Under the pieces are notes generated by a model. That model saw nothing but the letters and a program-made list of their open reading frames with translations, was not told where the DNA came from and did no database searches. A program made the translations under genes and the position numbers. Source: an uncultured Verrucomicrobiae bacterium (GTDB lineage Bacteria > Verrucomicrobiota > Verrucomicrobiia > Chthoniobacterales > UBA10450). From it: a stretch of DNA of 64,000 nucleotides. The stretch covers positions 928,001-992,000 of the forward strand of contig CAVYXA010000001.1 in the NCBI GenBank assembly GCA_963772365.1, given 5' to 3'. How positions within the stretch are numbered: the stretch's first letter is position 1; each line of letters opens with the position of its first letter. Shown here in pieces: positions 7,659 through 43,074 of the stretch.

Positions 7659-9920
7659 TCAAAACGCGAACCCGAAGCTGAAATGGAACGCACCAAAATC
7701 TTCGCCACGGTGGCGATCGGGATTGACCCCGTAATCGAGACGAATCGGGCCAATGGGCAACTTGTAGCGCAAACCCACGCCGATGGCGTAACGCATGTTG
7801 TCGAGGCTGGGATGTTCCGAGCTGGGCAAAAGATTACCGGCATCCCCAAAGATTGCCCCTTCCAATTCGCCCAGAATCGGAAACGTGTATTCCACATTGA
7901 AGACTGTAAGAAATTCGCCGCCGATTGGATTTCCCTTGGGATCGTGAGGACCAAGGTCGCGCTCGGTGAAACTGCGCACGGTGTTTGCGCCGCCGTTAAA
8001 GAACCGCTCGTCGATCGGGATCTCGGTGATTTCACCGCGGCCACTCTCAGTGAGCGAATGAATCGCTCCGACCCGAGCACCAAAGGCAATGGAGGACCCG
8101 TGGAACCAGCGCTGGAAAGGAGTATCGGCCGGCGTGGCTACGCCGATCAACGCAGCCTCGGGCGGTTTCGGACCGAGCGGAAGATAATAACCAACTCGCA
8201 TGGTACCGCGGACAAATTCCACCTCACTTCCAAATGCATTGGTGGCTAGATCGAATGTGTTGTTGATGAGAAAGCCGCGCGGCGTGACGAGCGGATTCTC
8301 GCGCAGATCGAGCGTGTTAGTTAGGCCAAGTGTGTTTACGAAATACGAAGTGTCGCCCAGGAACATCTTGTTGATGGTCGAACTGGTAATATCGACATGG
8401 CGAACCGAAAAAATCACGCCCGCTTCATCCTCTTTGATGATCTTTCGTGTGAGCTGAAGCTGGCCACCGATCTCAAATTTTGAATAGCCATCAAAATCAA
8501 AGGTGAGGGCCGCGAGCCGGGATTGAAACGCAAAGCCGCTGTCGAAAAAAAAGGGATCATCGTAAATGATCTCGCCTTTGTAACCGCGCTGAGAAAGTTC
8601 GACAGATGTGGTCAGCGGCCGGCCATAACCAAACAGATTCCGGTCACGATATTGAACCCCCACAATCGCTCCAGGATAAGTGCCGTATCCGACAGAAAGA
8701 CCCAGCTCCTTGGCTTTGGCTTCCTCCACTGAGATATCCAGGCGCAACAAATTTCCATCCACCGGCACCGGATTGACCTGGAGCACGTTAAATAATCCGG
8801 TTTTCATCAGGAGCCGGAACTTCTCATCAAGAACATCCGGGCTGTAGGTCTTGCCACTGAGACTGGTGAACCGTTCTCTCACAAATCCCGGCCGAAGACG
8901 CTCCAGACCGCTGACTCTTACGTCGCCGTCAAAATGATAGACCGGTCCCGCAGCGACTGTAATTTCAACCGGCACGCTTCCATTTTCTGCTTGTTCGGGA
9001 AAACCAGTGGCGGCCACTTTCACATCGTAATAGCCGCGCGTTTTGAAATAGGTCTGAAGCCGGCGCCGGATATCTTCCAATCGAGCATTAGTGTACGGTT
9101 TCTTCAGAAGATCGAAGACTTGACCGCGCAACGTCTCGGCGTCGTATGCGGTCTGGCCGGTGAATTGGGCGTTCCCGAAAAAATATTGCTGTCCCTCGTG
9201 GATCGGGATCGTGACGTTAACGGTGTCACCTTGATAATCGTACTGGGGAGGATCGACAACCGCATCCAGGAAACCTTGCGCGACATAGAACCGGTACATG
9301 AGATCCTCGCCTTCCCGAATGTCGGACGCGACGAACGGCAATGTTTCCTGGAGCCGCGAGTAGCGCTCTCGAGTTGGTCCGACGATATAATCAAACAGTT
9401 GTTCGGTCGGAATGTGCGTATTTCCCTCGAAACGAATCGTGCCGAGCGTCATTATCGGCCCCTCGTGAATGTCCAGAAGGAGCCGATTGCCCGATTCAAT
9501 GGTGTAATGCACGTCCACTTTGGAATAGCCGTGCTTCCGATAAAAGAGCTCAACAAAGAACGCGAGATCGTCCGCCTGCGCAGCGCTCAGGCCGCGCTGC
9601 TCGATTGCGGTAATCTGCTCCTTAACCTGTGATCGCAATTCCTTTTCGGAAAATGCCTGTTGCCCGCGAAATTGCATACTCGCCGCACGCTGAGCGATTT
9701 TTTCTTGTTTCTCTTTTACCGCGTGCTCCGCTTTTTTCTCTTCTTCCGGTTTGGGGACATCGCCAGCCGACTGGGCGATTAGATTTGCTGCGCTAATAAA
9801 CGATGCAAGAGCCGTCATTCCGAACAAAGCGCAGCGAAAGCGAGAAATCTCGCGCAATAATAACCAGGCATTATCACGGGATGGCTCGGCTTCGCTCGAC
9901 ATGATGGCTTTCCGGTTCAT
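7659..9920 (-). CDS. Omp85 family (BamA/TamA-like) outer-membrane protein
   Basis: POTRA-like repeats, ERFFNGGANTVRSF, GPIRLDYG, C-terminal FSFGFAF. Confidence 0.92.
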   Translation of the reverse strand: MNRKAIMSSEAEPSRDNAWLLLREISRFRCALFGMTALASFISAANLIAQSAGDVPKPEEEKKAEHAVKEKQEKIAQRAASMQFRGQQAFSEKELRSQVKEQITAIEQRGLSAAQADDLAFFVELFYRKHGYSKVDVHYTIESGNRLLLDIHEGPIMTLGTIRFEGNTHIPTEQLFDYIVGPTRERYSRLQETLPFVASDIREGEDLMYRFYVAQGFLDAVVDPPQYDYQGDTVNVTIPIHEGQQYFFGNAQFTGQTAYDAETLRGQVFDLLKKPYTNARLEDIRRRLQTYFKTRGYYDVKVAATGFPEQAENGSVPVEITVAAGPVYHFDGDVRVSGLERLRPGFVRERFTSLSGKTYSPDVLDEKFRLLMKTGLFNVLQVNPVPVDGNLLRLDISVEEAKAKELGLSVGYGTYPGAIVGVQYRDRNLFGYGRPLTTSVELSQRGYKGEIIYDDPFFFDSGFAFQSRLAALTFDFDGYSKFEIGGQLQLTRKIIKEDEAGVIFSVRHVDITSSTINKMFLGDTSYFVNTLGLTNTLDLRENPLVTPRGFLINNTFDLATNAFGSEVEFVRGTMRVGYYLPLGPKPPEAALIGVATPADTPFQRWFHGSSIAFGARVGAIHSLTESGRGEITEIPIDERFFNGGANTVRSFTERDLGPHDPKGNPIGGEFLTVFNVEYTFPILGELEGAIFGDAGNLLPSSEHPSLDNMRYAIGVGLRYKLPIGPIRLDYGVNPDRHRGEDFGAFHFSFGFAF

Positions 9921-9921
9921 C

Positions 9922-12900
9922 TCAATGAAATCGAAGCAGGTATCTCACCTTTAATCGGAAATCGCCTCCCACCTCAAGATCGCCCACGATTAGAAATTCA
10001 TCGTTAACCCTGAACCGCGCGGTGGCCTGGCGCTGGCCGGTGCGAGGATCGACCTGGCCGAAGCTCAGATCCAATCGACTGAAAATCGTGTTACTCTGAG
10101 TTGATTCTCCTTTCTTGAAAATCTTGCGATAAAGCTGCTGGATGAGCAACATCGCAGCGCGCCCAGCCAGCACATCATTGCCGCTGAGCAATTGCTCTCG
10201 CGTGGCGCCGGTGGCAAGCAAGGAAATAATTTCCTCCTGAGGCAGCGGCGGTTCGCTCGTGAACACGGCTTCGGGCGAGAGCACAGTTCCGTAAACGTAA
10301 ACCCGCACGGTGTAATCCTGAATGATCGAAGTCCCGCGCAAATCGAGCTTGGGATTGAACGGATCACCGCTCGGATCGAAATAGAGAAAGCCCTGGGAAA
10401 CCGAGAGCCGGCTGAACGGCAAAGTAGCATCGACATTATTCAGCCTCACAACTCCGTCCAAACCCGGGTGCAACCCGGTGCCGGTCAATTTCAAATCGAC
10501 GACTGCCTTGCCGGTTGCAAGATTGCCGCGGATCAGCACCGGATCTTTTGTCTTGATCGCCACATCGAACTTCCAATCTCGAAACGGTGGCGTCGTAAAC
10601 GCAAATTCCGGTTCCGCCGGAGGCGGCTGGGGCGGTGGCCGGCCGGGGAGCCCGATCGGAATCAGGTCGATGTTCTTGAGAAACCGGCTGTTCGTTAGGG
10701 CAACGGTCCCGGTCACGTTTGCACTCGTTAATGGCCCCGTAACCCCGACGTCCGCATCGGTTCGGATCGTCATTGTGTCGTTCCGCGCAACCAGAATACT
10801 GTCCGCTTTTAAATGCAGATCGAGCTGGACCGAAGTTAACGATTGAAACTTGATGTTGCCTCCGGCATTGAAATGTCCGCCAGCCAGCTCGCCATTGAAA
10901 CGCTCCAGCGTGAGATTGTCATTAGTGAAAGTCAGGCGAGCCTTGAAGTCGCGTAACGCAGGCAGTGTGGCATTCGCAAATCTCGCCAGAGTAATTGTCG
11001 TATCCGCGTTTCCGCTCAGGTTCGGCTGCGCGACCGTCCCGCCTACATCGACATCCATGGCCAGATCGCCATCGAGCACTTCGAGATCGGGAACAATGCC
11101 GCGAAGAAAATTTACCGAACTTCGCGGCAAATTGATTTTTGCCGTGACAGGGGTATCGCCAGAGATCTTCCGCTCGCGAATCGCTTTCGACAGATTGATC
11201 GGCAGATTTGCCGTCAACGTGAGAGGCTGAATCTGTTTCTGCTCAAGTTTTCCGGCCACATTGAGCTGATTGTTTTGAAGTTGAGCAGTCAGATCAAAAC
11301 TGGCCGGTTCGAGTTTCGGCGCCTTCTGGCTCTGGAGACCGCGCATCTGAAGATCGAAACGAGCGTTCAAATCGGATAATGTTCCGCCGGCATTGAGTTT
11401 TAAATTTAATTCACCGGAACAGGGCGCTTCTGCTCCGAAATCCTGGAATAGCTTTTTGATATCGAGATTCTCTGTTTGAAAGGTGGCCGTGACCTTCCCA
11501 TTGACTGGCGTGACCGGCTTGCTCGTCCCGAGATTTTTCCAAATGAACGGAATCGAGATGTAACCGCTCGCGTATTTCGATTGGGCCTGATTCAATTCAA
11601 TCTTCGAAATCTCCAGCGTCTGGCCTTTCGCTTCCGCGATCAGTTGGAAGTTCATCTGGCTCGTTGAGAGAAAGAAGAGCGGAGCATTGAAGCCTTCGGG
11701 CGAATAGGTCGCGTCAACTTTCGCTTCCACATTTTCCAGATCGCCGTAGCGCCCGTTTTCCAAACGCAATCGCAACGTCCCGGCATCCTGGAATTTTGTG
11801 GCCAGTCCGCTTCCATCCCAGTTCACGGCGAGCGATCCAGCGATTTCGGTGTCGATACCGAGTGCTTGCAACAATGGTTCCAGCTTCGATAAATCCGCGA
11901 TATTCGCCGACAACTTCCCACTATAACGAAACGGCGATTCCAGATCGACAGTCGCATTCGCGGCGATGAAATCGTTTTCATCGATCCGCGCGCTCAACTC
12001 CTTTACACGAAGCTGATTGTTCAAAACCGAGATTTGCCCGGTGAGTTGATTGAACGTCAGATCGCGGACCGCGAGGTTCGAGCCCGAGATCGACAACTCG
12101 CCATCGGCCACTTTGTTTTTCCGATCGATCCGGCCGTTCATCTGCAAGGAACCTGTGATCCGATTTGGAGAATCCTCGGCCCAGTATTCGCCTACGTCTC
12201 TTGCATTGAGATCGATATTCAGATTCACCGCAGTCGCGGTGAGGTTTGCGAAATTCTTTGGCAACTCATATTGCCCGGTCACCGCCAGCTTGTTGTCCGT
12301 TCGATCCAGCGCGAGCCGGTTGATTGTCAAAACGTCATCCGCTGCGCTCAGTGATGCGCTGATCGAATCGAAAACATAGTCGCGGTAATGGATGTCCGCT
12401 GCGTCTGCATTCACGACCGCGCGGAAATCGGCAAACCACGGTTTCTGTTCCTCAGGCGGCGGCATGATCTTGGACGCGCGAATGGCTGCGGTGACTTTGC
12501 CGACGCTTCCCTGTTTGAATCCGACTGAGTCTGCCGAAGCGGTAAGATTTACATGCAGCGTTCCGTTGGTGATTGAAAGTTTCCCGTTAAGCTGGGCTGA
12601 TCCAGTTAACGAATTTGGCGTCCGGGCGGTCAACTGGCCAAGATCGACATGATCGGCCGAAAGTTCGAGCTCCGCGGGCGTGCGACCCAGCTCTTCCATT
12701 TTAGAAGGCAATTGCGCCCAGCCGTGAAGTTCAATGTGATTGCCCGCCTCGATAATTTCGGCTGGTTCGAGAACCAGCTTTCCGTCTTTCACGCGGCCCT
12801 GGATTTCACCCTTGTCGAAACGGAGCGCGCCCAGCTGAAAATCCCGCAGGTTTGCGCTGATCGTGCCATCCCATGTGCTCGGCGAATCCAGTTTGCCGGT

Positions 12901-30352: not shown

Positions 30353-31813
30353 TCAGGCTTGTTTCGGTTTGAGCAAGGGAAACAAAATCACGTCCCGGAT
30401 AGATTCTGCCCCGGTGAGCAGCATCGTCAATCGATCGACGCCGATGCCGACCCCGCCAGCCGGCGGCATCCCGTGCTCGAGCGCGAGCAGAAATTCTTCG
30501 TCGATCTTTTGAGTCTCTTCACCGGCTTGCTCGAGCAAACGCTGACGCTGCACACCTGGGTCGTTCAATTCGCTATAGCCGGGCGCGATTTCCTGTCCGT
30601 TGATGATCAGCTCGAAAACATCGACAAGCGAATCGTCGTCGGCATTCTGTTTGGCCAGCGGCACCAGTTCTTTCGGAGTGTGAGTAACGAAAAGCGGATC
30701 AAACGTTTTCTCTTCAATCAGTTTCTCAAAAACATGCTGGGTGACTTCGAAATCGGCCAGTTGCGGCAGGATTTCTAATTTGAATTGCTCGGATGCGCGT
30801 TGACGCCGTTGCTCACTCGTAATTTCAAACCAATCATTACCCGCGACTTCACGGACAAGATCGCCGTAGCGGCCGCGTCGCCAGGGTCGCTTCAAATCAA
30901 TCGTGCGAACGACATTGCCATCGGCGTCTCGATGCTCGATTTGCAACGAGCCGCAAATCTTCTCGGCCAGATGACAGATCAATTCCTCGACGAGGTCGGC
31001 GATTTTTTCGAAATCGGCATAAGCCCAGTAGGCTTCGAGCATGGTGAACTCGGGATTGTGTTTCCGGGAGATCCCTTCGTTTCGAAAATTGCGATTGATC
31101 TCGAACACCTTGTTGAACCCGCCCACGAGCAAACGTTTCAAGTAAAGCTCCGGCGCAATCCGCATATACAGATCGATCCCGAGCGCTTTGTGATGGGTCT
31201 TGAACGGTTCGGCCGCGGCGCCTCCGGCAATTGTTTGGAGCATCGGCGTTTCCACTTCCAGAAAACCGCGATCTTCGAAAAAGCGGCGGGCCTCCCGCAC
31301 CATTGCGATCCGCTTTAAAAAGATCTCGCGCGATTGCTCGTTGGAAATAAGATCGAGATAGCGTTGCCGGTAACGCGCCTCGACGTCCTGCAAGCCATGC
31401 CATTTTTCGGGCAATGGCCGCACGGCTTTCGCCAATACCTGAAGCTTTTTCACCTTCAATGTCGGCTCGCCGGTTTTGGTCAAAAAACATTCACCCTCGA
31501 TGCCGATGAAATCGCCCAGATCGAGCAGTTGAAACAGTTCCATAGTTTCGGCGCCAATCTCTTTTGGGTGCAGGTAAATCTGGATTCGCCCCGTCACGTC
31601 CCGAAGATCGACAAAGTGACTCTTGCCCATGTCCCGATGCGCGGTGATCCGGCCTGCCACGCGCAAAATTTCGCCTTCTTGAAATTTCTCTCGCATCTGC
31701 GCGATCGATCCGCCCGGCTCGATAGCGCTGGCGCCGAACGGTGCGACCCCTCGTTCCCTTAAAGCGTCGATTTTCCTGCGACGCAGCGCGATCAATTCAT
31801 TTTCGTCGTCCAT
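30353..31813 (-). CDS. lysS: Lysine--tRNA ligase (class II)
   Basis: YRQRYLDL, GGAAAEPF, RIAPELYLKRL, FRNEG, HNPEFTMLE, GIGVDRL; start at MDDENEL. Confidence 0.97.
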   Translation of the reverse strand: MDDENELIALRRRKIDALRERGVAPFGASAIEPGGSIAQMREKFQEGEILRVAGRITAHRDMGKSHFVDLRDVTGRIQIYLHPKEIGAETMELFQLLDLGDFIGIEGECFLTKTGEPTLKVKKLQVLAKAVRPLPEKWHGLQDVEARYRQRYLDLISNEQSREIFLKRIAMVREARRFFEDRGFLEVETPMLQTIAGGAAAEPFKTHHKALGIDLYMRIAPELYLKRLLVGGFNKVFEINRNFRNEGISRKHNPEFTMLEAYWAYADFEKIADLVEELICHLAEKICGSLQIEHRDADGNVVRTIDLKRPWRRGRYGDLVREVAGNDWFEITSEQRRQRASEQFKLEILPQLADFEVTQHVFEKLIEEKTFDPLFVTHTPKELVPLAKQNADDDSLVDVFELIINGQEIAPGYSELNDPGVQRQRLLEQAGEETQKIDEEFLLALEHGMPPAGGVGIGVDRLTMLLTGAESIRDVILFPLLKPKQA

Positions 31814-31939
31814 CTTTAGCGAGCGAATGTAAAAGCGGAGCGCGAAAATGAACAGCCCGAACGCCGAAGAAACTTTGTCGCTGCGATTCCAGCAGAAATC
31901 GAGGATCGACAATTGCGCTACCGACAAATCGGCTTGCGC

Positions 31940-32443
31940 CGCTGAAACGATCACTGATTCATTCCGCATGCCTCGGATTCATCGGCTGGATCTTCTTAGG
32001 CCAATTCTGTGCCGTACGTGCGCAGCTGGTGGAAACACCGACGACCGAGGACCGTATTTGGCTGGGGATCAAACGAAGCGCGCATTGAGTCAGGGTTGCT
32101 CCGGGGCGCCAGGCAAATCAAAACTTTCCCAGTGGCAATTGGCCGGCCCGGCGGGGAGACACCGCTTGGTACGTTTCACATTCTCCAAATGCAAAAGGAT
32201 CCGACGTGGAAGCATCCATTGACCAGCGAGATTTTCCGCCCGGGCGATGACAGCAATGAGCTTGGGCGTTATTGGATTGGCTTCTCAACGACCAGAAAGG
32301 GTGCGATTGGATTTCACGACACGCCACATCCTGAAACAGTCGGCAAACCGGTGACGCACGGCTGCGTCTGAATGTTCGAGCCTGATATCGCGGAATTATT
32401 TCGACAAGTCCACATCGGCACGCTCGTCACTGTCACTCCGTAA
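31940..32443 (+). pseudogene. L,D-transpeptidase (YkuD family) pseudogene
   Basis: FPVAIG..ETPLG..GFHDT..THGCV[TGA]MFEPDIAELF..GTLVTVTP; a second TGA in IKRSAH* plus a frameshift; 5' end approximate. Confidence 0.75.
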
Positions 32444-32510
32444 TTCCCGCCGCGAATGCACAGGACATGATTGTCGATCTTGCGTGATGAGCGCGTTGTC
32501 GATTTTCAGC

Positions 32511-34502
32511 TCACCGCAACGCCTCCACCGGGTCGGGCGGATGAACCAGCTCGGGCGGCGGCGGATTCGATTTCAGATAATCATCCACCGCGTCTTTCGT
32601 TGCCTGGTCGATGTTTTTGCTGGCATCTCTTTCGGTAGCGTGCGCCTCATCGGCAGCTTTCTCGGCTTTGTAGAGATCAGTCATCGCCTGCTTGCCGTCA
32701 TCGGTCTTATTGAAGTCCTGTTTGAAATTGTTTTCCAGTTTCTTCAACTCGTTGTCGAGTTTGTTGAACGCGTCCTTGTCCGCGTCGGTCGCGCCGGCAG
32801 CCTTGGCCTTTTTCTCAGCGTCATCGCGCTGTGTTTTCAAGTCGTTGTAGCTCTTCTTCCCGCTCAGGAAATCCTGAAACTTTTTGTTGTAATCGTCGTT
32901 GGCGTCGGCCTTCGCGTCATCGGCCCAGCCGGCCTTGAATTTTTTCTGCAGCCAATCAGCAAACGGATATTCCTTAACGAACTCGTCCCACCAATCGAAT
33001 CGATAAACGTAACCCTTTTTCTTTTTGTCTTTCTTGTCTTTTTTTTTCTTCTTCTCCTGCGTTTGCGGCCCAGGCGTCGGCGTATCGTTTGAAATGTTGA
33101 CGCTGTTCCCCGCGATCATTTCCTCTTCTTCCGGCTCCTCCAGTTCCTTGGCTTTGGAGCTGGTCAACTCCACTTTTTCGAAAATCGTGTCGATCCCCTG
33201 ATCGACCTTCTTTTTGGTTGCCCGGCTCATTGGCCCCTGTTTTTCAACCTGTTTATAAACAACCTGTTTGAGCTCATCTTTTGTGGCCGGTTTTGCGCCG
33301 GTGATGCCGCAAATCTCCGGGTCGCCCCACACGCTCCACTGGATCACGATGTCTTTTTGCTTTTGCTTGTCGCGATAAGGCATGTCCTTCAGCTTGCCTT
33401 CTTTCTGCAATTCATCGGCGGCATCGTATTTCGAACTGGCCAGGGTCAGCATCGTGTTCGCGTCCTGGGCCGGCAGATGCGAGCCGGGCATCTGCAGTTG
33501 CGGATTGCCTTCGTTGATAACCAAATCGCCGGTGACTCCATTGCCCACCGGCGGTTTGCTTCGGTCGAGACATACGCCTTCAATTGGCACCGTGAAGCTT
33601 TGTTTCGGGCCGAGCACCATTGGTTGCTCGCTTGGGCAGGCGTAATGCTGATTTTTTCCGCTGCTCGACTCCAGAACCATCGGCGGAATCATAAAACTCA
33701 CCGGCTGCGCAGTTTGATTTTGGATCAGGCAATTAGCTACGGGACCGATGGTTTGCCCAGTGCCGGCAATCTCGACCGCCAGTTTGTTCCGCAGAATGAG
33801 AGAGGAGATCGTATTCCCAGGCTCTCCGTCTGATGGTGTCGAGGTCGCGCTTGGAAAAGCCTGCAGTTTTGATCCCCATTTGGTTTGCAAATCGTCCAAC
33901 GTGGGGCCGAGCTTTGGGTACCTCGTTGGGTCGGCGCCTAAAGAATGGTCCGTCCACTCCACTTTTTTGGGATCCCAAACGTGATTTTTCCAGTTATCTC
34001 TCTTGCCGTCTTCCCACCCGTCGTAGCCGTAGATTATTCCGCCCAAGATATCTTTCCCGTTCGGGCCGTAGCTTTCGACACGCTGATGAAGCAGGGCGCC
34101 ATCTTCCGTCGAATAGGTAGCTTCAGTCTTTGAGCTGAGCGTTCCGTTCTTTCGGTAAGTATAGGTGCTGACGGTCGTCCGCTTCGTGTTGGGATTGCGT
34201 TCGACGAACACAACCCTCGCGGGTCTTTCGCCTTTCTTCGTGAATCGGACCCACTCGACTTTTGTGATGTTGCCGTCCTTGTCTCGAGTCGTGCGTTTCT
34301 CACCGTCGCCGTTAAACGGGCCCTCGAAAATTTTGTAGAAGGAAACTTTCTCGGTCGTGATTGTGCCGCCATCCGGATTTTTTTTGACGATTGGAGCGTC
34401 GGCATGAATTGGCGGCGCAACGCAAAACCAAACCAGAACTGCAAAGGCTGGCACGGCCTTGCACGACATCCGCAGTCGAAAGCGATTTCTCAGGTGGCGC
34501 AT
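32511..34502 (-). CDS. Secreted hypothetical protein: YD/MORN-like beta repeats, shared Cys/QWSVW domain, Lys-rich helical tail
   Basis: 663-aa ORF; signal-like AVLVWFCVAPPIHA-D; central domain paralogous to the C-terminal half of 34537..36036. Confidence 0.8.
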   Translation of the reverse strand: MRHLRNRFRLRMSCKAVPAFAVLVWFCVAPPIHADAPIVKKNPDGGTITTEKVSFYKIFEGPFNGDGEKRTTRDKDGNITKVEWVRFTKKGERPARVVFVERNPNTKRTTVSTYTYRKNGTLSSKTEATYSTEDGALLHQRVESYGPNGKDILGGIIYGYDGWEDGKRDNWKNHVWDPKKVEWTDHSLGADPTRYPKLGPTLDDLQTKWGSKLQAFPSATSTPSDGEPGNTISSLILRNKLAVEIAGTGQTIGPVANCLIQNQTAQPVSFMIPPMVLESSSGKNQHYACPSEQPMVLGPKQSFTVPIEGVCLDRSKPPVGNGVTGDLVINEGNPQLQMPGSHLPAQDANTMLTLASSKYDAADELQKEGKLKDMPYRDKQKQKDIVIQWSVWGDPEICGITGAKPATKDELKQVVYKQVEKQGPMSRATKKKVDQGIDTIFEKVELTSSKAKELEEPEEEEMIAGNSVNISNDTPTPGPQTQEKKKKKDKKDKKKKGYVYRFDWWDEFVKEYPFADWLQKKFKAGWADDAKADANDDYNKKFQDFLSGKKSYNDLKTQRDDAEKKAKAAGATDADKDAFNKLDNELKKLENNFKQDFNKTDDGKQAMTDLYKAEKAADEAHATERDASKNIDQATKDAVDDYLKSNPPPPELVHPPDPVEALR

Positions 34503-34536
34503 CTGTTGTTTTACTTTTTAGGAGAATGAAACGGTC

Positions 34537-36036
34537 TCACGGCGACGGAGTCGGGCTGGGACTTTCTTCCGGCGGCGATTGTTCGGCTTTGGCTTTCTCG
34601 CCGGTCAACTCGACGCTGGCAAACGGATCGGGTTTTTCCAATTCTTTCGCTTTTGCCGAAGTGAGCTCGATCTTGTCCCAAATCGTATCGATTCCATTGT
34701 CGATCTTCTTTTTCGTCTGCGACTTCATCTTGCCCTTTTCTTCCTTCTGCCGATAAACCACCTGCTTCAGATCATCCTTTTTTGCTGGAGGATCACCGGT
34801 GATTTCGGAAATTTTTGGATCGCTCCAAACGCTCCATTGCACCGCAATTTCGATCTGTTTCTTTTTATTGGGATACGGGAAACCCTTGAACTCGCGATCC
34901 TTCACCAGCGTTTCGGCCGCTCGATATTTCGAGTCGGTAATCTGAAGCAAATCTCTGGCTTGTTTCGGCGAGAAGCGGGCTTCCGGATATTTCGGGATAG
35001 TACTGTCACCCGTATTGATAAAAAGCTCTCCGGCAACATGGTCGCCGGCGGGTGGCTTCCCTCGTTCCAAGCAGACGCCCGTCACTGGTATACTCAGGGT
35101 TTCCTGTGGCCCTAACGAAACCTCCTGCTGCCTGGGAGAGGCATAATCCTGCGTTTTACCATTTGCCGACTCAAGGATGAATGGGGGCACGAGAAACTTC
35201 AGCGGCTCATTGGTCAGATTTTGGAAATTAAAATCTGCGATGTGTTCTATTGTGTCGCCTGTGCCCGTGATCTCAGTTTTGATCTTTTCCGGGCGCCCGC
35301 CAGTGCCCGAAAGAACATCGACCGGCCGGCTGGTAATAAAAAGGATCAGGTTCTGCTTTGGCTTGTTGCGCGGAGAAAACAATCCACTCAACACCGGAAT
35401 CTGACCAAGCGCTGGAACAGTGCTCGTCTCGTTGCCTTCAACTGTTTTCAATGGCTGCGGAAACACCGAGCCGTTCTCGGACCGAATTTTGGGATCGATC
35501 TTGATGAGGATGTCGCCGTTCGGCGCGAGAGTTGGTGTGGTTGTCAGGATCAAATTGCCTTGTGGAAATACAACCGAAGGATCGAGGTAAAAATTCGTCT
35601 CCTGCTCGCTCGGAGCCAGTATCGCAGGTTGCTCGAAAATCTTGGCGCCTTTTTCGCGATCCAGAACATGCAGAATCGCCTTGAATTGCTGATCGGTGAT
35701 GAGTCCGGACAGGTTGATGCTACCGGGAATCTGATCCGGCGGGAAGAGTCGTTGCCTAACTGTTTCAGCCGACGGAGAGGGTCCAAGACCCAAGATGCCG
35801 TCTTCCGGCGACGGCAATTTCGCCGCATCGGCTGGCAACTTCGACAGAACATCGGCAATGCGATTGTCGATGCCTAATTCGCGAGACAGGGTTCGGCTTA
35901 CCTCGGCGACCTTTACTTCAATTAAAACTTGGCGGGTCAAAACTTCCGCCCGAACCAATCCACCAGCCGAAATGGCGCAGAGACCCGCAGTCAGGAATGC
36001 CCAACTTCTCCGCTTCGAACCAATCAATCCAGCCAT
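34537..36036 (-). CDS. Secreted protein: reduced secretin-like domain fused to the shared Cys/QWSVW domain
   Basis: QVLIEVKVAEVSR..RELGI, LITDQQFKAIL, LTTTPTL..GDILIKIDP, VPALGQIPVLSGLF, NLILFITSRPV. Confidence 0.78.
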   Translation of the reverse strand: MAGLIGSKRRSWAFLTAGLCAISAGGLVRAEVLTRQVLIEVKVAEVSRTLSRELGIDNRIADVLSKLPADAAKLPSPEDGILGLGPSPSAETVRQRLFPPDQIPGSINLSGLITDQQFKAILHVLDREKGAKIFEQPAILAPSEQETNFYLDPSVVFPQGNLILTTTPTLAPNGDILIKIDPKIRSENGSVFPQPLKTVEGNETSTVPALGQIPVLSGLFSPRNKPKQNLILFITSRPVDVLSGTGGRPEKIKTEITGTGDTIEHIADFNFQNLTNEPLKFLVPPFILESANGKTQDYASPRQQEVSLGPQETLSIPVTGVCLERGKPPAGDHVAGELFINTGDSTIPKYPEARFSPKQARDLLQITDSKYRAAETLVKDREFKGFPYPNKKKQIEIAVQWSVWSDPKISEITGDPPAKKDDLKQVVYRQKEEKGKMKSQTKKKIDNGIDTIWDKIELTSAKAKELEKPDPFASVELTGEKAKAEQSPPEESPSPTPSP

Positions 36037-36053
36037 CGCAAGACTTAAGGGAA

Positions 36054-36491
36054 TTACGGGTTCGACGCCGCTTTAGCCGGTTTTTCCTCTTTCGCATCGC
36101 TTCCAGTCAAGCGTACGTCACTGAACAGGCTGGTCGTTGAAATCTCTTCCTTCGGTTTCGAAAATTTCGCCTTCTCCTGCGTGTGCGCAACCGGCTCGTC
36201 ATTGGCGACGGCAAACGGATCGGCCTCACGTTTGCGGTGGCCGATACCGCCAAGATCGACATTCACGCCTACCCCTACGCTGGTGTGACCCTCATGATGT
36301 TCCCCTCGCTTTCCACTGTGATGCGATTCATTTCTTTCGCCCTTTTCGCCCTTGAAGCTCTTGCCGCCTCCACCGCCGCCGCACGTGCAGGGCGAACATC
36401 TACAGGGATTGCAAGGACAGGCTGAGGCCGTGATGACAGTGGAAATTGAGACCAGCCCGATCAGTGCGAAGAAAAGAATGGGAGTTTTCAT
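36054..36491 (-). CDS. Small secreted Cys- and His-rich protein
   Basis: Signal MKTPILFFALIGLVSISTVITASA, then CPCNPCRCSPCTC, poly-Gly and SHHSGKRGEHHEGH; ATGA overlap with upstream gene. Confidence 0.75.
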   Translation of the reverse strand: MKTPILFFALIGLVSISTVITASACPCNPCRCSPCTCGGGGGGKSFKGEKGERNESHHSGKRGEHHEGHTSVGVGVNVDLGGIGHRKREADPFAVANDEPVAHTQEKAKFSKPKEEISTTSLFSDVRLTGSDAKEEKPAKAASNP

Positions 36492-37018
36492 TTTGCAATA
36501 GAAGTAAGTCGGAGAACGAACACCTGACCGCTCGGAAGCGTGATCTGAAGGCGCTTATCGGATGTGAAAATCTCCTTCGGCCAATCGGCCTTGGTATACG
36601 CGTAATTTCCATGCGGGCCGAAAATCTTGTTCAAATTGATGCCCACGCCCGATGCATGCACTCCGGACGAATCGCCGTAGCCACCTACCGAAATCGGCAG
36701 GCCGGTGTTTTCTTCGTGCCCAACTTTTCGATCTTCGCGAAACACTGGTTTGATTGCGGCGCCGGTCGCATCGATTAAAGCAATCGCCCGCGGCTTGATT
36801 AGCTTCAGGTTTGCGTCCGAGACGCGAATGATCAGACGCGTATTTTGCGGTTTAGCCTGATGCAGCGTGTCGCCAATCGTCTCAATGGTGTAAGCGCCGC
36901 TTTTTGTCGTCTGATGCATAGGCGTGAGCGGGCCGCTCTTCCGCGGTCCCGCTTCGACCTGAAAGTCGACGACCAGACCAAGAAGCGGCAGTGCAATGGC
37001 AATGATTACTTTTTTCAT
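36488..37018 (-). CDS. Secreted hypothetical protein
   Basis: Signal MKKVIIAIALPLLGLVVDFQVEA; AGGAG RBS. Confidence 0.75.
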   Translation of the reverse strand: MKKVIIAIALPLLGLVVDFQVEAGPRKSGPLTPMHQTTKSGAYTIETIGDTLHQAKPQNTRLIIRVSDANLKLIKPRAIALIDATGAAIKPVFREDRKVGHEENTGLPISVGGYGDSSGVHASGVGINLNKIFGPHGNYAYTKADWPKEIFTSDKRLQITLPSGQVFVLRLTSIAK

Positions 37019-37169
37019 AAACATTTCTCCTGAACCAGCCATGTTGGTCAACGCACTGATCCCAGTCGCCCCTGTTGGATAGGTGGCAGGTCGTGAAACT
37101 CAGGTTAGCGAAAGCCTCGCTAACTTGTAAAGCCCGAAAAACTTAAGCGCTCTTTCCTCGCTTGCTGCG

Positions 37170-37856
37170 ATGTCATGGATAATGGAGCCCAAAGCGGATG
37201 CACCATTTGAGCCGCGCAGTGATGAGCTGGACGATCTCCTGATTTTTGGCGGCCCGGAAACGCGCCGGCAGTTTATCAAGCAAGTCGCGGGAACCGGTGT
37301 GGCGATCACGATCGGGCCGGCTTTATTGAACGCCGCAACTCTAATGGTCGACGAAACTTCTGTTGCATCAGGCCCGGGATCGAGCACCGATTCCATTAAG
37401 GTGAAGCTGAACATCAACGGTAAAGAACACCAGGTCGATGTCGATCCTAGGACGACATTGCTCGACACCCTGCGCGAACGACTGCAACTGACGGGCTCGA
37501 AAAAGGGATGCGATCACGGACAGTGCGGCGCCTGCACGGTGTTGATTAACGGCCGACGAGTGAATTCGTGTCTGACATTCGCGGTGATGCACGAAGGCGA
37601 CGAGATCACCACGATCGAAGGTCTGGCCAATGGTAACGACCTGCATCCGATGCAGGCGGCATTTGTCAAGCACGACGGATTTCAGTGCGGTTACTGCACC
37701 CCCGGCCAGATTTGTTCGGCCGTTGCCTGCGTGAAAGAAGGGCACGCGAACAGCGACGAGGAAATTCGCGAATGGATGAGCGGCAACATCTGCCGGTGCG
37801 GCGCGTACACAAACATTCTGGCCGCGATTAAAGAAGCGAAGTCAAAAATCATCTGA
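37170..37856 (+). CDS. paoA: Aldehyde oxidoreductase 2Fe-2S subunit (PaoA/YagT-like) with Tat motif
   Basis: TRRQFIK; GCDHGQCGACT; QCGYCTPG; NICRCG. Confidence 0.88.
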   Translation: MSWIMEPKADAPFEPRSDELDDLLIFGGPETRRQFIKQVAGTGVAITIGPALLNAATLMVDETSVASGPGSSTDSIKVKLNINGKEHQVDVDPRTTLLDTLRERLQLTGSKKGCDHGQCGACTVLINGRRVNSCLTFAVMHEGDEITTIEGLANGNDLHPMQAAFVKHDGFQCGYCTPGQICSAVACVKEGHANSDEEIREWMSGNICRCGAYTNILAAIKEAKSKII

Positions 37857-37896
37857 CAGAATGATCAACAGCAAGCGATCGAGAAGCCATGTCCAC

Positions 37897-38006
37897 AAAG
37901 CGACACGAGGACGCGCCGCACTCCTAAAGCTTCGCGAAAGGAATGGAAGACGTGTGGTGTTTCGGGCGAAGCCCTTTCGGAGTGCGATGCGTCCTCGCAT
38001 CGCTTT
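37897..38006. repeat. Intergenic palindromic REP-like doublet (AAAGCG..GCACTCC / GGAGTGC..CGCTTT family)
   Basis: Inverted arms; the 18-mer GCGTCCTCGCATCGCTTT recurs inside the mocA-like gene, ending at 42729. Confidence 0.8.
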
Positions 38007-38021
38007 TGCATCCTTGCTCGC

Positions 38022-39020
38022 ATGAATCCGTTTACTTATTCGCGCGTTGTCGATTCTAACGAGGCAATCAGCGGGATCGGTTCGAAACCACACGCTAAAT
38101 TCATCGGCGGCGGCTCCAATCTGATCGACTTGATGAAAATGGGTGTGGAGACACCCGATGCGTTAATCGACATCAACCATCTGCCTCTGGCGAAAATCGA
38201 GGAGCTTCCCAACGGAAAAGGCGTGCGCATTGGCGCGATGGTCCGCAATTCCGATTTGGCCGAGAATTCATTGATCAAATCTCGCTACCCGGTTCTAAGC
38301 GAAGCCATCCTCGCCGGGGCCAGCCCACAACTGCGCAATGTCGCCACCACTGGCGGCAATCTTTTGCAGCGCACACGCTGCTATTATTTTTACGACCCGG
38401 CATTTCCGGCCTGCAATAAACGCAATCCCGGGAGCGGTTGCGGCGCGATCGACGGTTACAACCGCATCCATGCGATTCTGGGCCAGAGCGACAAGTGCAT
38501 CGCCACGCATCCGAGCGACATGTGCGTGGCCCTGGCCGCGCTCGATGCTGTCGTGCGCGTTCGCGGCCCGAAAGGTGAACGCGAAATTCCATTCGCCGAT
38601 TTTCATCGGTTACCCGGCGACACGCCCGAACGCGAAACGAATCTCGGGCCGGACGAGTTGATCGTGGCTGTCGATCTTCCCCCGATTCCGTTCACCACCC
38701 GTTCGCACTATTTGAAGGTGCGCGACCGGGCCAGCTATGCGTTTGCGCTGGTGAGCGTGGCTGCCGCGCTCGATGTCGAGCCCAACAAAGAAATCAAAGC
38801 AGCGCGGCTCGCTCTCGGCGGGGTGGCTCATAAACCATGGCGGGCGCATACAGCGGAAGAAAAGTTGATAGGCGCAAAAGCCGACGAGAAAACATTTCGC
38901 GCAGCCGCGGAAGCTGAACTCGCCGCCGCCAAGGGGTACAAATACAATTCGTTCAAGATCGAACTGGCGAAGAATGCGATCATCCGCGTGCTCAGCACGG
39001 TCGCCGCAATGACAACATGA
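38022..39020 (+). CDS. paoB: Aldehyde oxidoreductase FAD subunit (PaoB/YagS-like)
   Basis: [48 protein letters not shown]. Confidence 0.9.
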
Positions 39021-41207
39021 GCGCACCCAAACCAATCACAGCGAAATCGATGAGCACGCCGATGAGCCGTGTCGATGGCCCGTTGAAGGTCACGGGCGCA
39101 GCCAGGTATCCCGCGGAGTTTAATCCACCAGATGTCGCGCATGCATTTGTTGTGATGAGCCCGATATCAAAGGGGGAGATCACGGCGATTGATTCGGCTG
39201 CGGCAGAAAAGGCGCCTGAGGTTCTCGCAGTTCTCACTCCTTTCAACGCGCCAAAATTATCCGAGCCGCCGAATGCGCAAAAACGGGAAGGAATCCGGAT
39301 CGAGAAACGCGAGCCGTTGGCGGACAAGAAGATTTATTATGGTGGTCAAGTACGTTGCTGCGGTCATCGCAGAAACGCTCGAAGCTGCACGATATGCGGC
39401 ATCGCTGCTGAAAATATCCTACAAAAGCGAGTCGCCATTGCTAAATAGAGAAACAGCAATCAAGAAAACGGAGCCGAAGGAACACTTCGGCGACGAGCTG
39501 CGACAGAAAAAGGGCGACGTCGCGGCCGTGTTTGAGAAAGACGATCTGGTCAAGATCGAGAACACCTATTCGAGCCCGACCGAGACCCATAATCCGATGG
39601 AATGCTCGGCGACCGTGGCGCATTGGGAAGAGGCCGATCGGCTGACGATCTATGATGCGACGCAATTTGTGAAAGGCTCGCAAGGAATCGTTGCTCACGC
39701 ATTTGGGATTCCGCGAGAAAATGTGCACGTGATCTGTCCATTCGTCGGCGGAGCGTTTGGCTGCAAAGGACCAACCTGGCCACACACGATTCTCGCGGCA
39801 ATGGCAGCGAAAGTTGTGAAACGTCCCGTAAAACTCGAGCTGACGCGACAGCAGATGTTCAGTGGAACCGGCCATCGGCCGCCGACTTATCAGACCATCG
39901 CGCTGGCGGCGGATCACGACGGAAAGCTTCAGGCGATCCGTCACAAAAGCGAAATGCTCACATCACCGGTCGGCGACTGGGTCGAAGCGTGCGGGATTGG
40001 TTCGACGAATGTTCTTTACGATGCGCCCGCTATCGAGTTCAGTCACACCGTTTACACCGTCAATGTTGCTCAGCCGTCGTTTATGCGCGCGCCGGGTGAA
40101 TGTCCGGGCACTTATGCGTTGGAATGCGCCATGGATGAATTGGCTTATGCGCTCAAGATGGATCCGCTGAAATTGCGGCAGGTTAACAATTCGCCCGGTC
40201 ATCCGATCAAAGGCATTCCATGGTCCACGAAACATCTGGCGGAAGCTTATCAATTGGGCGCTGAGAAATTTGGTTGGTCGAAACGCAAACACGAGCCGCG
40301 CTCCATGCTCGCCACGGCGAGTCCGTCCGGTGGCGGAAAAGATCGACATTTGCTCGTAGGCTGGGGCGTAGCCACTGCGACTTATCCCGCGCACGCCGGT
40401 CGCTCTGAAGTGAGAATTCAATTTCGCGCCGACGGAACAGCATTGGTGAAATGCGCCGCCCATGATCTTGGAACGGGTCAATGGACGTCACTTACTCAAA
40501 TCAGCGCCGACGCTATTGGATTACCGGTCGAAAAAGTGAAGTTCGAGCTTGGCGATTCCGATTATCCGTTCGGGCCGGTCGCGGGCGGATCGCAAACCAC
40601 GGCGACCGTCGGATCCGGAATTGCCCTCGCGGCGCAGGATTTGAAAAAGAAACTTGTCGATCTTGGCGCCAGTGAAAACAAACCGGCAACATTCGCCGAC
40701 GCGTTGAAGCGGAAGGGAACCGACTCAGTGGAAGGTTACGGCAAATATGAATTCGAGGAGAGCGACAAATTCGGATTCCAAAGTTTCGGCGCACAATTCT
40801 GCGAGGTGAAAATCGATCCCGATTTGCCGCTGGTCCACGTGACGCGCTGGGTGAGCGTGATGGACTGCGGGCGCGTCGTGAATTTGAAGACCGGCGCGAG
40901 TCAGATTCTCGGCGGCGTAGTGATGGGCATTGGAATGGCACTGGAAGAAGAAACCGTTTACGATCCGGCCACTGGACTGCCGGTGAACCGGAATCTCGCC
41001 GAATATCATGTGCCGGTGCACGCTGATATTGAAAACATCGATGTGCATTTTGTCGGAGAGCCCGATTACAAGTTCAATCCGGTCGGCGCGCGCGGCATGG
41101 GCGAGATCGGAATCACCGGCGCCGCGGCAGCCGTGGCGAATGCCGTTTATCACGCAACTGGAAAGCGCGTGCGCGACCTGCCGATCACGCTGGATAAATT
41201 GCTGTGA
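39017..41207 (+). CDS. paoC: Aldehyde oxidoreductase molybdopterin subunit (PaoC/YagR-like), frameshift near 39350
   Basis: [44 protein letters not shown]. Confidence 0.88.
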
Positions 41208-42223
41208 AAGAAATCTACGACATCCTGCGCGAGGTAGGGCGCGACCGCCGGGCGCGCCGTGGTTTTGCCCTCGCGACGCTGGTTCGCGCGGAAGGATCGA
41301 GCTTTCGCCGACCCGGCGCGCGAATGTTAATTTGCCAGGATGGAAAAACAGTCGGCTCGCTCAGTGCCGGCTGCCTGGAGGACGAAATTGCATCGCGAGC
41401 TCGCGAAGTCTTGAAAACGGGAAAACCGTCGATGATGAGTTTCGACACACGGCGACGATTCGGCTGCAGCGGCAGGATCGACATCTTCATTGAGCGCGCA
41501 TTGGAAAAGTTTTTTGTCGATCTTGCCAGGAATCTAGACTCGCGCAGGAGTTGTCTTGCGATTACTGCGCGCGAAGGAACATCTGTAGGGGAAGCTGACA
41601 GCTTCCCCGGTTTCACCGCGAACCATTTTTGTGGTGGGGAAGCTGTCAGCTTCCCCTACAGCCAGAACCGTGACGTGTTGCTCGTTCAGCAGATTCATCC
41701 ATCCATTCGGCTTTTGATTGTTGGCGATGGACCGGACAATGCGCCGATTTGTAAATTGGCGAGCCTCATTGGCTGGGAGACGGTTGAATTTGTCGATCCG
41801 GGCGAAATCGTGATCGAGCCGGACGAATGGACCGCGGCGATTGTGAAATCGCACAATTACGGACGCGATTTTGTGGCGCTGCAAAAATTGCTGCCGATGA
41901 ATCTGCGGTATGTCGGCCTGATCGGGCCGCGGAAACGACGGGATCAATTGCTTAATGCTCTCCTCGATGAAGATGTCACGATCAATGCCGGATTTTTCGC
42001 ACCGGCGGGGCTCGATCTTCACTCGGAAACCCCGGAGGAGATTGCTCTTGCCGTTGTCTCGGAAATTCAGCGCGTGTTTGCTGGTGGCTCCGCCTTGTCG
42101 TTGCGGGAACGGAAGATGTCGATCCACGCGTCGTTTCACAGTTCCTCGACGGATTCCGTGGCGCCATCGAAAGGAAATGTCGCGGGATCCTTCGACCCCG
42201 AAAGCGTTCGGGGCTCAGGATGA
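41204..42223 (+). CDS. XdhC/PaoD family molybdenum cofactor chaperone
   Basis: EGSSFRRPGARM, SAGCLE, GCSG, YVGLIGPRKR, APAGLDL..ETPEEIA. Confidence 0.9.
   Translation: MKEIYDILREVGRDRRARRGFALATLVRAEGSSFRRPGARMLICQDGKTVGSLSAGCLEDEIASRAREVLKTGKPSMMSFDTRRRFGCSGRIDIFIERALEKFFVDLARNLDSRRSCLAITAREGTSVGEADSFPGFTANHFCGGEAVSFPYSQNRDVLLVQQIHPSIRLLIVGDGPDNAPICKLASLIGWETVEFVDPGEIVIEPDEWTAAIVKSHNYGRDFVALQKLLPMNLRYVGLIGPRKRRDQLLNALLDEDVTINAGFFAPAGLDLHSETPEEIALAVVSEIQRVFAGGSALSLRERKMSIHASFHSSSTDSVAPSKGNVAGSFDPESVRGSG
41583..41661. repeat. GTAG REP doublet, perfect 26-bp inverted repeat inside the xdhC-like gene
   Basis: CTGTAGGGGAAGCTGACAGCTTCCCC (41583-41608) and GGGGAAGCTGTCAGCTTCCCCTACAG (41636-41661). 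Confidence 0.9.
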
Positions 42224-43074
42224 CAGGCGCGGTAATTCTGGCGGCGGGCCAATCGTCGCGATTTGGGCAGCCCAAGCAACTCGCGAGATTTTGCGGAGAG
42301 AGTCTCCTGCGCCGAACTGTCGATGCTGCGAATGCCGCCGGTTGTTCGCCGATTATCGTCGTGGCCGGCTCTGATAGCGAAGAGTTGGTTCCCGAATTGC
42401 GCGATCTCGATGTTGTAATCGTTGAAAATCCGGGGTGGCGGCGCGGGATTGGAACTTCAATCCGAGCTGGTTTGAAGGTGTTCATCAAGGACAGGCGTTT
42501 TGTTAAGCGCCCTGCGGCGATTGGAAAACCGCCGTTCATTGGAGGAATCATCGGCGATCGAAAGCGCTTGTCGCAGCGCGCAAGTAGTGCCGACGACTGT
42601 GCTCCGTCATCGGGCAAAGCAACGCGAGAACGCGCGCGCACTCCGAAAGCTGACGCGAAATGGAATTTGGCGTCTGGAAAGATTTCGCACGAAGTGCTTT
42701 CGAAGTGCGAAGCGTCCTCGCATCGCTTTCAGCGAATTGCTCGCGACGCCCATAAAGGCGTAATTTTAATGGTGTGCGACCAGCCGTTTGTGGATGCGGG
42801 TGTAATCAAGAAGCTCATCGCGCTGCGGGAGCAAACCGGGAAAGCAATCGTCGCGTCTCGCTATGCGGATACTCTCGGCGTGCCGGCGCTTTTCGATCGT
42901 TCCTGTTTTGAAGAACTCCTTGCACTGGACGACGCCGATGGTGCAAAGCCAATTATTCTGCGCGATCGATCACGAGTGGCCACGCTGCCATTTCCGAACG
43001 GCGAGATCGACATCGATACTGCAAAAGATTTGGAAAAGCTCGCATTGGTGGAACGCGATCTCCGAGCGCGTTAG
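42220..43074 (+). CDS. Molybdenum cofactor cytidylyltransferase (MocA-like) with an in-frame repeat-derived insertion
   Basis: ILAAGQSSRFGQPKQL, GIGTSIRAG, CDQP, GVPALF, DIDT. Confidence 0.88.
   Translation: MTGAVILAAGQSSRFGQPKQLARFCGESLLRRTVDAANAAGCSPIIVVAGSDSEELVPELRDLDVVIVENPGWRRGIGTSIRAGLKVFIKDRRFVKRPAAIGKPPFIGGIIGDRKRLSQRASSADDCAPSSGKATRERARTPKADAKWNLASGKISHEVLSKCEASSHRFQRIARDAHKGVILMVCDQPFVDAGVIKKLIALREQTGKAIVASRYADTLGVPALFDRSCFEELLALDDADGAKPIILRDRSRVATLPFPNGEIDIDTAKDLEKLALVERDLRAR

Follow-up and report, generated by a model that had tools for sequence, protein, structure and literature searches.

We analysed a stretch of 64,000 nucleotides (the window) from an uncultured Verrucomicrobiae bacterium (GenBank assembly GCA_963772365.1, contig CAVYXA010000001.1, positions 928,001 to 992,000); coordinates below are positions within this window. 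Two adjacent genes on its minus strand, gene A and gene B, each encode a copy of a domain that occurs in diderm bacteria as an unannotated module and that, in structural models, looks like a rearranged relative of the thioester domains (TEDs) of Gram-positive bacteria, with a TED-like fold at weak scores. Based on conservation, architecture, gene context and tag statistics, we tentatively propose that this domain acts as a thioester "catcher" and is coupled to a lysine "tag" borne by its own partner proteins. Neighbouring partner genes encode a short copy of the domain's last helix, lysine included. This suggests covalent bonding of these secreted proteins among themselves, and not with a host. 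With slightly less assurance, we consider it possible that this is a natural enzyme-free catcher-and-tag system that builds branched covalent assemblies tied to tagged outer-membrane proteins.

Gene A (P0001, 499 amino acids; 34537..36036) encodes a presumed signal peptide, a reduced secretin-like domain, copy A of the domain and a tail with a tag. Gene B (P0002, 663 amino acids; 32511..34502) encodes a presumed signal peptide, a beta-rich N-terminal region, copy B and a charged C-terminal tail. Copy A comprises about residues 250-466 of P0001 (34639..35289, minus strand), with a beta subdomain followed by a helical one, and copy B about residues 239-455 of P0002 (33138..33788, minus strand). 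An earlier note on this DNA had described two regions that align almost without gaps, and this was confirmed: the translations of 34627-35295 and 33129-33791 (minus strand; 223 and 221 residues) share 109 identities in 220 columns (50%) with one gap (E 9e-82), the DNA identity being 383/663, and every motif quoted in the note is present in the translations. The two copies occupy two adjacent genes and not one protein. No third copy was found in a genome-wide search of the bacterium's own genome. In a tree, each copy clusters with genes of the same architecture from other genomes, so the duplication predates these genomes. The cysteine of the GVCL motif, singled out in the note, is indeed the only one common to both copies and the only one of mature P0001: besides Cys322, P0001 has only Cys20, which falls within the presumed signal peptide, and copy B also contains Cys258, Cys289 and Cys398.

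No Pfam or NCBIfam match to the domain was obtained with four window queries, 52 homologues or 11 further homologues, and the source names shown for family members read "hypothetical protein" or DUF4157 throughout. Homologues were collected using this domain as query. The searches yielded 46 close proteins, 298 representatives (150 listed) and, with a Bacteroidota-type query, 171 proteins (120 listed), and, of 115 confirmed matches, the best 80 supplied 75 genome loci. According to their titles, these 75 loci belong to Verrucomicrobiota, Bacteroidota (mostly Saprospiraceae), Acidobacteriota groups, Gammaproteobacteria, a planctomycete, Chondromyces and a deltaproteobacterium. Verrucomicrobiota, and in many cases Chthoniobacterales, are the source of the nearest named loci, and the host most likely belongs there too. 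All hosts are diderm groups by title, save one titled Bifidobacteriaceae (L081); its cassette clusters with those of Bacteroidota, and we suspect a binning error. Within the bacterium's own family the distribution is patchy (11/201 genomes). The domain is a plug-in module with very variable flanking cargo: the N-terminal extensions (n=125) form 39 clusters and the C-terminal ones (n=107) 43 clusters. Cargo among the homologues includes reprolysin-like, C39-like and C13-like peptidase stretches (C39 and C13 under the cut-off), the eCIS core and immunoglobulin (Ig) stalks. The stretch joined to the domain in P0180, P0182, P0189, P0255, P0259 and P0264 is an eCIS core (DUF4157). An N-terminal hydrophobic run was detected in 236/266 proteins by a crude hydrophobicity test run without a control.

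For the conservation analysis, 447 segments were reduced to 331 by dropping those with >30% gaps or >90% identity. In domain numbering (P0001 residue = domain residue + 247), Gln49 is present in 331/331 rows, Cys75 in 330/331, Trp157 in 330/331, Gly73 in 329/331, Asn26 in 326/331 and Gln153 in 323/331, and Lys217 is a lysine in 310 of the 316 ungapped rows. The cysteine that the note had proposed as the reactive residue (Cys322, domain Cys75; 35071..35073, minus strand) is thus conserved in homologues. After export, the domain would probably form by itself a thioester between this cysteine and Gln296 (domain Gln49; 35149..35151, minus strand). The note had offered two candidate glutamines: Gln296 in GKxQxY is the invariant one, and Gln430 in KQVVYxQ (domain Gln183), kept in 314/331 rows and located on a helix, was rejected as first choice. 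Gln400 of QWSVW was also considered; it corresponds to the TQxxW-type glutamine, which is non-bonding in TEDs (PMC4450167). A Cna-type lysine-asparagine isopeptide was considered for the conserved Asn26 and set aside, because there is no conserved acid. The corresponding residues of copy B are Gln285, Cys311, Gln388/Trp392 and Lys452.

The domain model (123 sequences; predicted local distance difference test, pLDDT, 96) consists of eight strands followed by five helices. Gln49 stands just ahead of strand 51-53 and Cys75 at the end of strand 66-75. The last helix comprises residues 192-219, and no strand lies beyond it in the domain model or in the model of P0001; several family members terminate a few residues past this helix. 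When the domain model was compared with solved structures using an exhaustive structural aligner, only four of the 50 matches listed spanned both subdomains: CpTIE-TED 5a0g (Z 6.0, root-mean-square deviation (rmsd) 3.6, 127 residues aligned), FNE 5dcq (Z 5.4, rmsd 3.9, 129 aligned), which we take to be a TED, Cpa 2xi9 (Z 5.3, rmsd 4.2, 131 aligned) and BaTIE 6fwv (Z 5.3, rmsd 3.7, 112 aligned). With a second model, that of full P0001, the same four and 6fwy (EfmTIE86) were found, giving five adhesin rows that span both subdomains. Most of the remaining matches were helix bundles, or else Ig-like sandwiches that cover residues 1-95. The match to 5a0g covers 101-253 and stops where the C-terminal beta part with Gln267 begins. 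In this TED, the beta part comprises 100-162 and 251-276 and the thioester joins Cys138 to Gln267 (PMC4450167). The matched part is therefore a TED minus its C-terminal glutamine hairpin.

The motifs by which TEDs were defined (PMC4450167, PMC6194298) fit the domain in part, namely in QxxxW and, in about half of the rows, in [YF]C. The TED motif TQxx(hydrophobic)W has its counterpart in a QxxxW with the same spacing on the central helix, residues 144-157 of the model (Gln400-x-x-x-Trp404 of P0001; 34825..34839, minus strand), in which the threonine is mostly isoleucine or valine. Tyrosine or phenylalanine precedes the cysteine in 164/331 rows and valine in 128/331. The C-terminal strand that bears the TED glutamine is absent, and the invariant glutamine lies N-terminal of the cysteine; the Gram-positive host of TEDs (save for the one Bifidobacteriaceae title) and, in both window proteins, their N-terminal position and LPXTG anchor were not seen either. 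The earlier note had suggested a divergent TED, to be checked by structure prediction and fold search. Part of this stands: TEDs spanned both subdomains (Z 5.3-6.0, weak scores), the cysteine is near-invariant and the Q-x-x-x-W helix is present. Because the glutamine precedes the cysteine, no strands follow the last helix and no TED model matches, the domain is not a plain divergent TED. Foldseek returned no match to the domain at E 0.001. Most likely, the domain is TED-like in its working, yet it falls outside the TEDs in glutamine position, sequence match and host range.

Profile alignments also addressed the position of the glutamine. The family profile (229 sequences) was aligned using HHalign with a TED profile of nine plasmid-borne sequences of the pLS20 TIE family. 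Two brief stretches matched, one pairing Cys75 with Cys68 (P 0.037) and the other Gln49 with Gln256 (P 0.091), and their order is swapped between the profiles. In the pLS20 TIE, function depends on Cys68, with Gln256 as its partner in a model (PMC8092201). Among 120 column shuffles, the cysteine was paired in 14, the glutamine in three and both in none, and the best score was reached by one; this null is lenient, since shuffling destroys strand periodicity. The glutamine hairpin, C-terminal in TEDs, would here lie N-terminal of the cysteine strand within the Ig-like sandwich. The fold match begins at model residue 7, which would favour a hairpin moved between earlier strands over a true circular permutation.

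A further link leads to ARPP-1 (PF20208), the nearest named Atlas cluster for two queries (0.86 and 0.85, both <0.9); the family annotation is carried by 44% of the members of the nearest Atlas cluster. When the family profile was aligned with five ARPP-1 sequences, 66 columns matched, and Asn, Gln and Cys came to lie in register (P 0.0055, 0/120 shuffles). ARPPs have an absolutely conserved cysteine and glutamine in a beta-barrel, and sugar cross-linking via the cysteine has been proposed (PMC9503650). The domain has such a conserved pair in its beta part as well. The duplicated beta-meander core of ARPP-1 was not found, the domain being helical after the cysteine, and the 297-position PF20208 model had no match in the window queries, the own genome or the homologues. 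To judge from the sequences, the domain family may bridge TED and ARPP-1 while being a member of neither. In the Verrucomicrobiota ARPP-1 proteins (L087-L091; 5/251 genomes) the glutamine also precedes the cysteine, and by analogy these proteins may hold a thioester too.

The ARPP-1 link also speaks for a distinctly unlikely alternative, in which the cysteine and glutamine form a catalytic site instead of a stored thioester (an ARPP-like sugar cross-linker, or a transglutaminase-like or peptidase activity with the tag as its recognition site). The nearest-cluster result, the 66-column register and the proposed sugar chemistry fit this alternative, as does the histidine of the near-invariant GTGxTxGH loop between strands one and two, which is kept in 281/331 rows. 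However, the ARPP match is confined to the beta subdomain, the function assigned to ARPP is a prediction too, both QxxxW and the helical subdomain are as in TEDs, and the loop histidine is replaced by proline in copy B. Furthermore, the cassettes hold one to four domain genes with changing cargo, which rather fits a coupling module. In one locus (L009) four domain genes stand in tandem, and one of them (9859-11357) is split by frameshifts in its N-terminal part.

The proposed coupling partner is a tag of 12 residues, aromatic-x-x-hydrophobic-x-L-T-G-x-x-A-K, which ends the domain's own last helix. The built-in copy in P0001, recognised by conservation, is Trp453-Lys464 (34645..34680, minus strand; Lys464 = domain Lys217). 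Free tags are carried by the P0001 tail (Phe472-Lys483; 34588..34623, minus strand; pattern and matrix scans), by a 145-residue secreted partner encoded next to gene A (Phe123-Lys134; 36090..36125, minus strand; strict pattern and family conservation), and, in Bacteroidota, by the mature N-termini of outer-membrane barrels and of Ig-stalk proteins. Among 6178 open reading frames (ORFs) of the genome, the strict pattern occurs twice, both times in the cassette (P0001 tail and 145-residue gene). In the 145-residue family, Phe123, Leu128, Thr129, Gly130 and Lys134 are invariant in 12/12 aligned rows.

In addition, a matrix built only from domain residues 206-218, with the Lys217 column left unscored and a cut at 12 bits, was scanned over 539,395 ORF positions outside domains in the fetched loci (L012 and L023 omitted as duplicates). 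There were 35 matches, and the lysine was kept in 30: 21 in domain-free proteins, eight in tails of domain proteins and one in a domain that is probably cut by a contig end. The five matches without lysine were four copies of one housekeeping motif, presumably that of seryl-tRNA ligase, and one other ORF. Outside the locus, the own genome gave three matrix matches, with lysine in 0/3. The tag of the 145-residue protein of the window scores under the 12-bit cut. Directly downstream of domain genes, 13/62 ORFs (some of the 62 are not real genes) were tagged <=70 residues from their start, all with lysine, compared to 0/339 controls; a looser pattern, drawn post hoc, gave 22/37 vs 5/463. In several free tags the alanine is substituted and the lysine retained. 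The tag sits on unrelated proteins, some of them barrel-like (weak PF13505), others with an Ig stalk and a hydrophobic stretch rich in Gly. All 7/7 complete barrel homologues, two of them already counted, carry the tag. An unnamed barrel-like family in 10 Saprospiraceae loci (e.g. L036 6723-7604, L055 1612-2601, L080 7306-8100) has a conserved L-F-E-x-L-G-G-E-F insertion as well as the N-terminal tag.

Once the thioester has formed, the acyl group would rather likely pass to the lysine of the 12-residue tag on another subunit, and the product would be an intermolecular isopeptide bond. Alternatively, the thioester targets a foreign substrate, cells or amines, while the tag serves only non-covalent helix swapping or export and its lysine is structural. 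This we regard as unlikely. Known TEDs do act in such a way: their thioester forms an isopeptide with a target lysine, as in SfbI-TED with a fibrinogen lysine (PMC4450167), and in the accessible parts of PMC4450167, PMC6194298 and PMC13685950 TEDs are reported from Gram-positive bacteria only, with fibrinogen as the named physiological target. Moreover, six Saprospiraceae proteins have the classic adhesin layout, with the domain N-terminal to an Ig-like stalk (Big_9, HYR_4C), and residues covarying with the domain core are retained in free tags, as would suit a plain exchange of helices. Against foreign targets speaks the lysine itself, which at a position left unscored was kept in 30 of 35 matches and outlasts the alanine. 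Many members, including both window genes, hold the domain mid-protein. The TED loop between the corresponding strands is variable and a proposed specificity determinant (PMC4450167, PMC6194298), whereas the GTGxTxGH loop, probably its equivalent, is almost invariant.

Covariation placed the tag segment against the glutamine and cysteine strands (7 pairs vs 1.8 expected, p about 0.03); the Gln49-Cys75 register was not recoverable by covariation in the 331-sequence alignment. A helix so placed, with Lys217 in 310 of the 316 ungapped rows, would also suit self-locking, in which Gln49 is transferred via the thioester intermediate to the domain's own Lys217, and the intramolecular isopeptide serves stability. 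Self-locking would likewise give a mass change of -17 Da. We hold it to be highly unlikely, because it leaves unexplained both the free tags on domain-free proteins and the two-domain proteins: in 11/11 of these, the first copy keeps Gln49, Cys75, Gln153 and Trp157 and lacks the lysine, and the second copy keeps the lysine. These lysine-less first copies and the free tags show that a catcher can exist without a tag and a tag without a catcher. In L030 (4993-7236) and L031 (1609-3852), an insertion displaces the tagged last helix by about 180 residues, and this helix ends the protein; the upstream gene of 252 amino acids is tag-terminated likewise. As far as the sequences tell, the free lysine tag and the lysine-less domains that keep cysteine and glutamine are new here.

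Several observations weigh against a TED-like catcher that couples to these tags. No structural match to the domain reached Z 8, values of 5-6 lie within the aligner's stated noise, and Ig-like sandwiches reach scores equal to those of TEDs. With Foldseek, no match to the domain was found at E 0.001 in the PDB and viral models, and no TED was among the 50 matches listed of the top 1000; a sequence search of solved structures (alignment A1) gave chance helical matches only. PF08341 and related TED models did not match in the four window queries or in the 52 + 11 homologues. In the own genome the TED and ARPP-1 models were silent, as were the controls. Both window copies have valine before the cysteine, not the tyrosine, phenylalanine or leucine of the TED motif. 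The TED profile comprises only nine related sequences, the HH probabilities for its two pieces were 1.4% and 0.6%, and the pLS20 Gln256 is itself a modelled assignment. Covariation is weak and blind to invariant residues, it also pairs Lys217 with Gln183 (rank 152), and of the two halves of the alignment (p 0.027 and 0.066) the Bacteroidota-like one (0.066) was not significant. The free tag of P0001 is undocked in the model (pLDDT 54-57). Neither L010, which has two domain genes, nor the Acidobacteriota and Proteobacteria loci yielded a free tag. Finally, tag-bearing loci include close relatives, and the tag counts are therefore not independent events. The weak fold and profile scores and the collection of homologues by a domain query would also suit a protein without covalent chemistry, an Ig-like and helical scaffold in which cysteine and glutamine are structural or ligand-binding and the TED likeness is due to chance. 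This we find the least probable of all, as a lone unpaired cysteine and a glutamine are the best-kept residues in members down to about 20-30% identity, and three weak tests indicate the same two residues.

If catcher and tag do couple, the cassette would link secreted proteins covalently into chains or a net, with variable cargo domains on either side, and tagged barrels or the secretin-like protein would fasten the assembly to the envelope. The secretin-like domain of P0001 comprises about residues 34-243 (35308..35937, minus strand). PF00263 matched a 40-residue stretch of P0001 with 30.2 bits (cut-off 27.5), NCBIfam GspD scored 45 bits vs a full-length cut-off of 351, and Foldseek matched the N-terminal half of P0001 to GspD (E 3.5e-4). 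The five best structural matches of the P0001 model, all at residues 25-249, had Z 6.2-6.6 and rmsd 5.3-6.4, and four of these are titled secretin or secretion-system pores. The secretin core fold is thus present, without the N domains and full length of secretins. A fusion of secretin-like part and domain occurs in 19/188 proteins. If it forms a ring in the outer membrane, this part may act as an anchor like the tagged barrels.

Two small genes on the same strand precede those of P0001 and P0002. The first cassette gene (36488..37051) encodes a secreted partner of 187 amino acids (178 from the second ATG) without a tag. Its family is found in 13 loci; the protein is highly conserved, occurs in 2/61 genomes, both domain-bearing, and has no Pfam or NCBIfam match. 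The second gene (36054..36491) encodes the tagged 145-residue partner, mostly of low complexity and without the domain, the family of which is also found in 13 loci. Strong matches to this family were obtained in 10/201 genomes, all within the 11 domain-bearing ones, and weak matches in four further genomes concern low-complexity parts only; the positive side of this co-occurrence is partly circular, because the rows of the family came from domain loci. Both partners contain a G-V-G-(V/I)-(N/D)-(V/L)-x-L-type stretch, and the motif CPCxPCxCxPCTC, a stretch rich in His and, as a second conserved motif, EPDPF are found in the 145-residue family. In P0002, the beta-rich N-terminal region belongs to no known family in Pfam or NCBIfam, and the charged C-terminal tail recurs in 39 other family members.

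Convergent with the cassette lies an L,D-transpeptidase gene (YkuD; 32000-32445, plus strand), the frame of which is interrupted by a stop right after the catalytic HGC motif and by a frameshift; this may reflect decay or an assembly error. An intact L,D-transpeptidase gene adjoins the cassette in L009. On the other side, a gene set at 37170-43074 (plus strand) reads, from its translations, as xanthine-dehydrogenase-like, with a large subunit apparently split at about 39190-39450. Rfam gave no match at 31000-38500, and promoter and terminator counts did not differ from chance.

The lysine tag and the ARPP-1 link go beyond the earlier note. We found no description of the family, a permuted TED or the tag in a literature search, most subscription journals being outside its range, and the accessible parts of PMC9210967 and PMC12617251 make no mention of such a family. 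If the proposal is true, the domain represents a third TED topology that has reached at least five diderm phyla, and the genome itself reveals its likely target. The domain and its 12-residue peptide would also provide a new means of ligating proteins, which may be reversible and tuned by pH, as has been reported for the bond of SfbI-TED (PMC13685950). TEDs and ARPP-1 would be joined in one superfamily, with a thioester predicted in ARPP-1, and a chemical hypothesis is thereby offered for the conserved cysteine and glutamine of the latter. Should coupling to the tag be demonstrated, the system would be of a new kind.

Among known systems, the TEDs of TIE adhesins (5A0G, 2XI9, 6FWV, 6FWY, pLS20 TIE; PF08341) share with the domain a beta subdomain followed by a helical one, a cysteine ending a strand, QxxxW on a central helix, secretion and, in some members, Ig stalks. 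Bacteroidota members also have a hairpin of the kind hydrophobic-Y-x-P-x4-Y-Q, like the pLS20 TIE. Unlike in TEDs, the glutamine precedes the cysteine rather than following the helices, the C-terminal strands are all absent, and extra strands form an Ig-like sandwich; the hosts are diderm, the domain is often mid-protein, no LPXTG anchor was seen in the two window proteins, the loop is invariant and a lysine tag is found on co-encoded partners. In ARPP-1, too, a beta domain holds Asn, Gln and Cys, and their order and register agree with those seen here. This likeness is confined to about 75 residues, with no Pfam match in either direction. According to PMC9503650, ARPP-1 occurs in ADP-ribose conflict contexts and its beta-meander core is duplicated; in the five aligned ARPP-1 sequences, unlike in the domain, no QxxxW helix or tag was noticed. 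P0001 resembles secretins (GspD, RcpA, pIV; PF00263) in core fold and motifs, and differs from them in that its part of about 210 residues directly follows the signal peptide, lacks N domains and is fused to the domain. In SpyTag/SpyCatcher, the lysine of a short motif is joined to an acyl donor in an intermolecular isopeptide. Sortase-built pili, phage capsid cross-links and transglutaminases likewise join a lysine and an acyl donor into covalent polymers (PMC12617251). Unlike in those isopeptide systems, donor, catalyst and tag would here be combined in one Cys-Gln module, with no separate enzyme.

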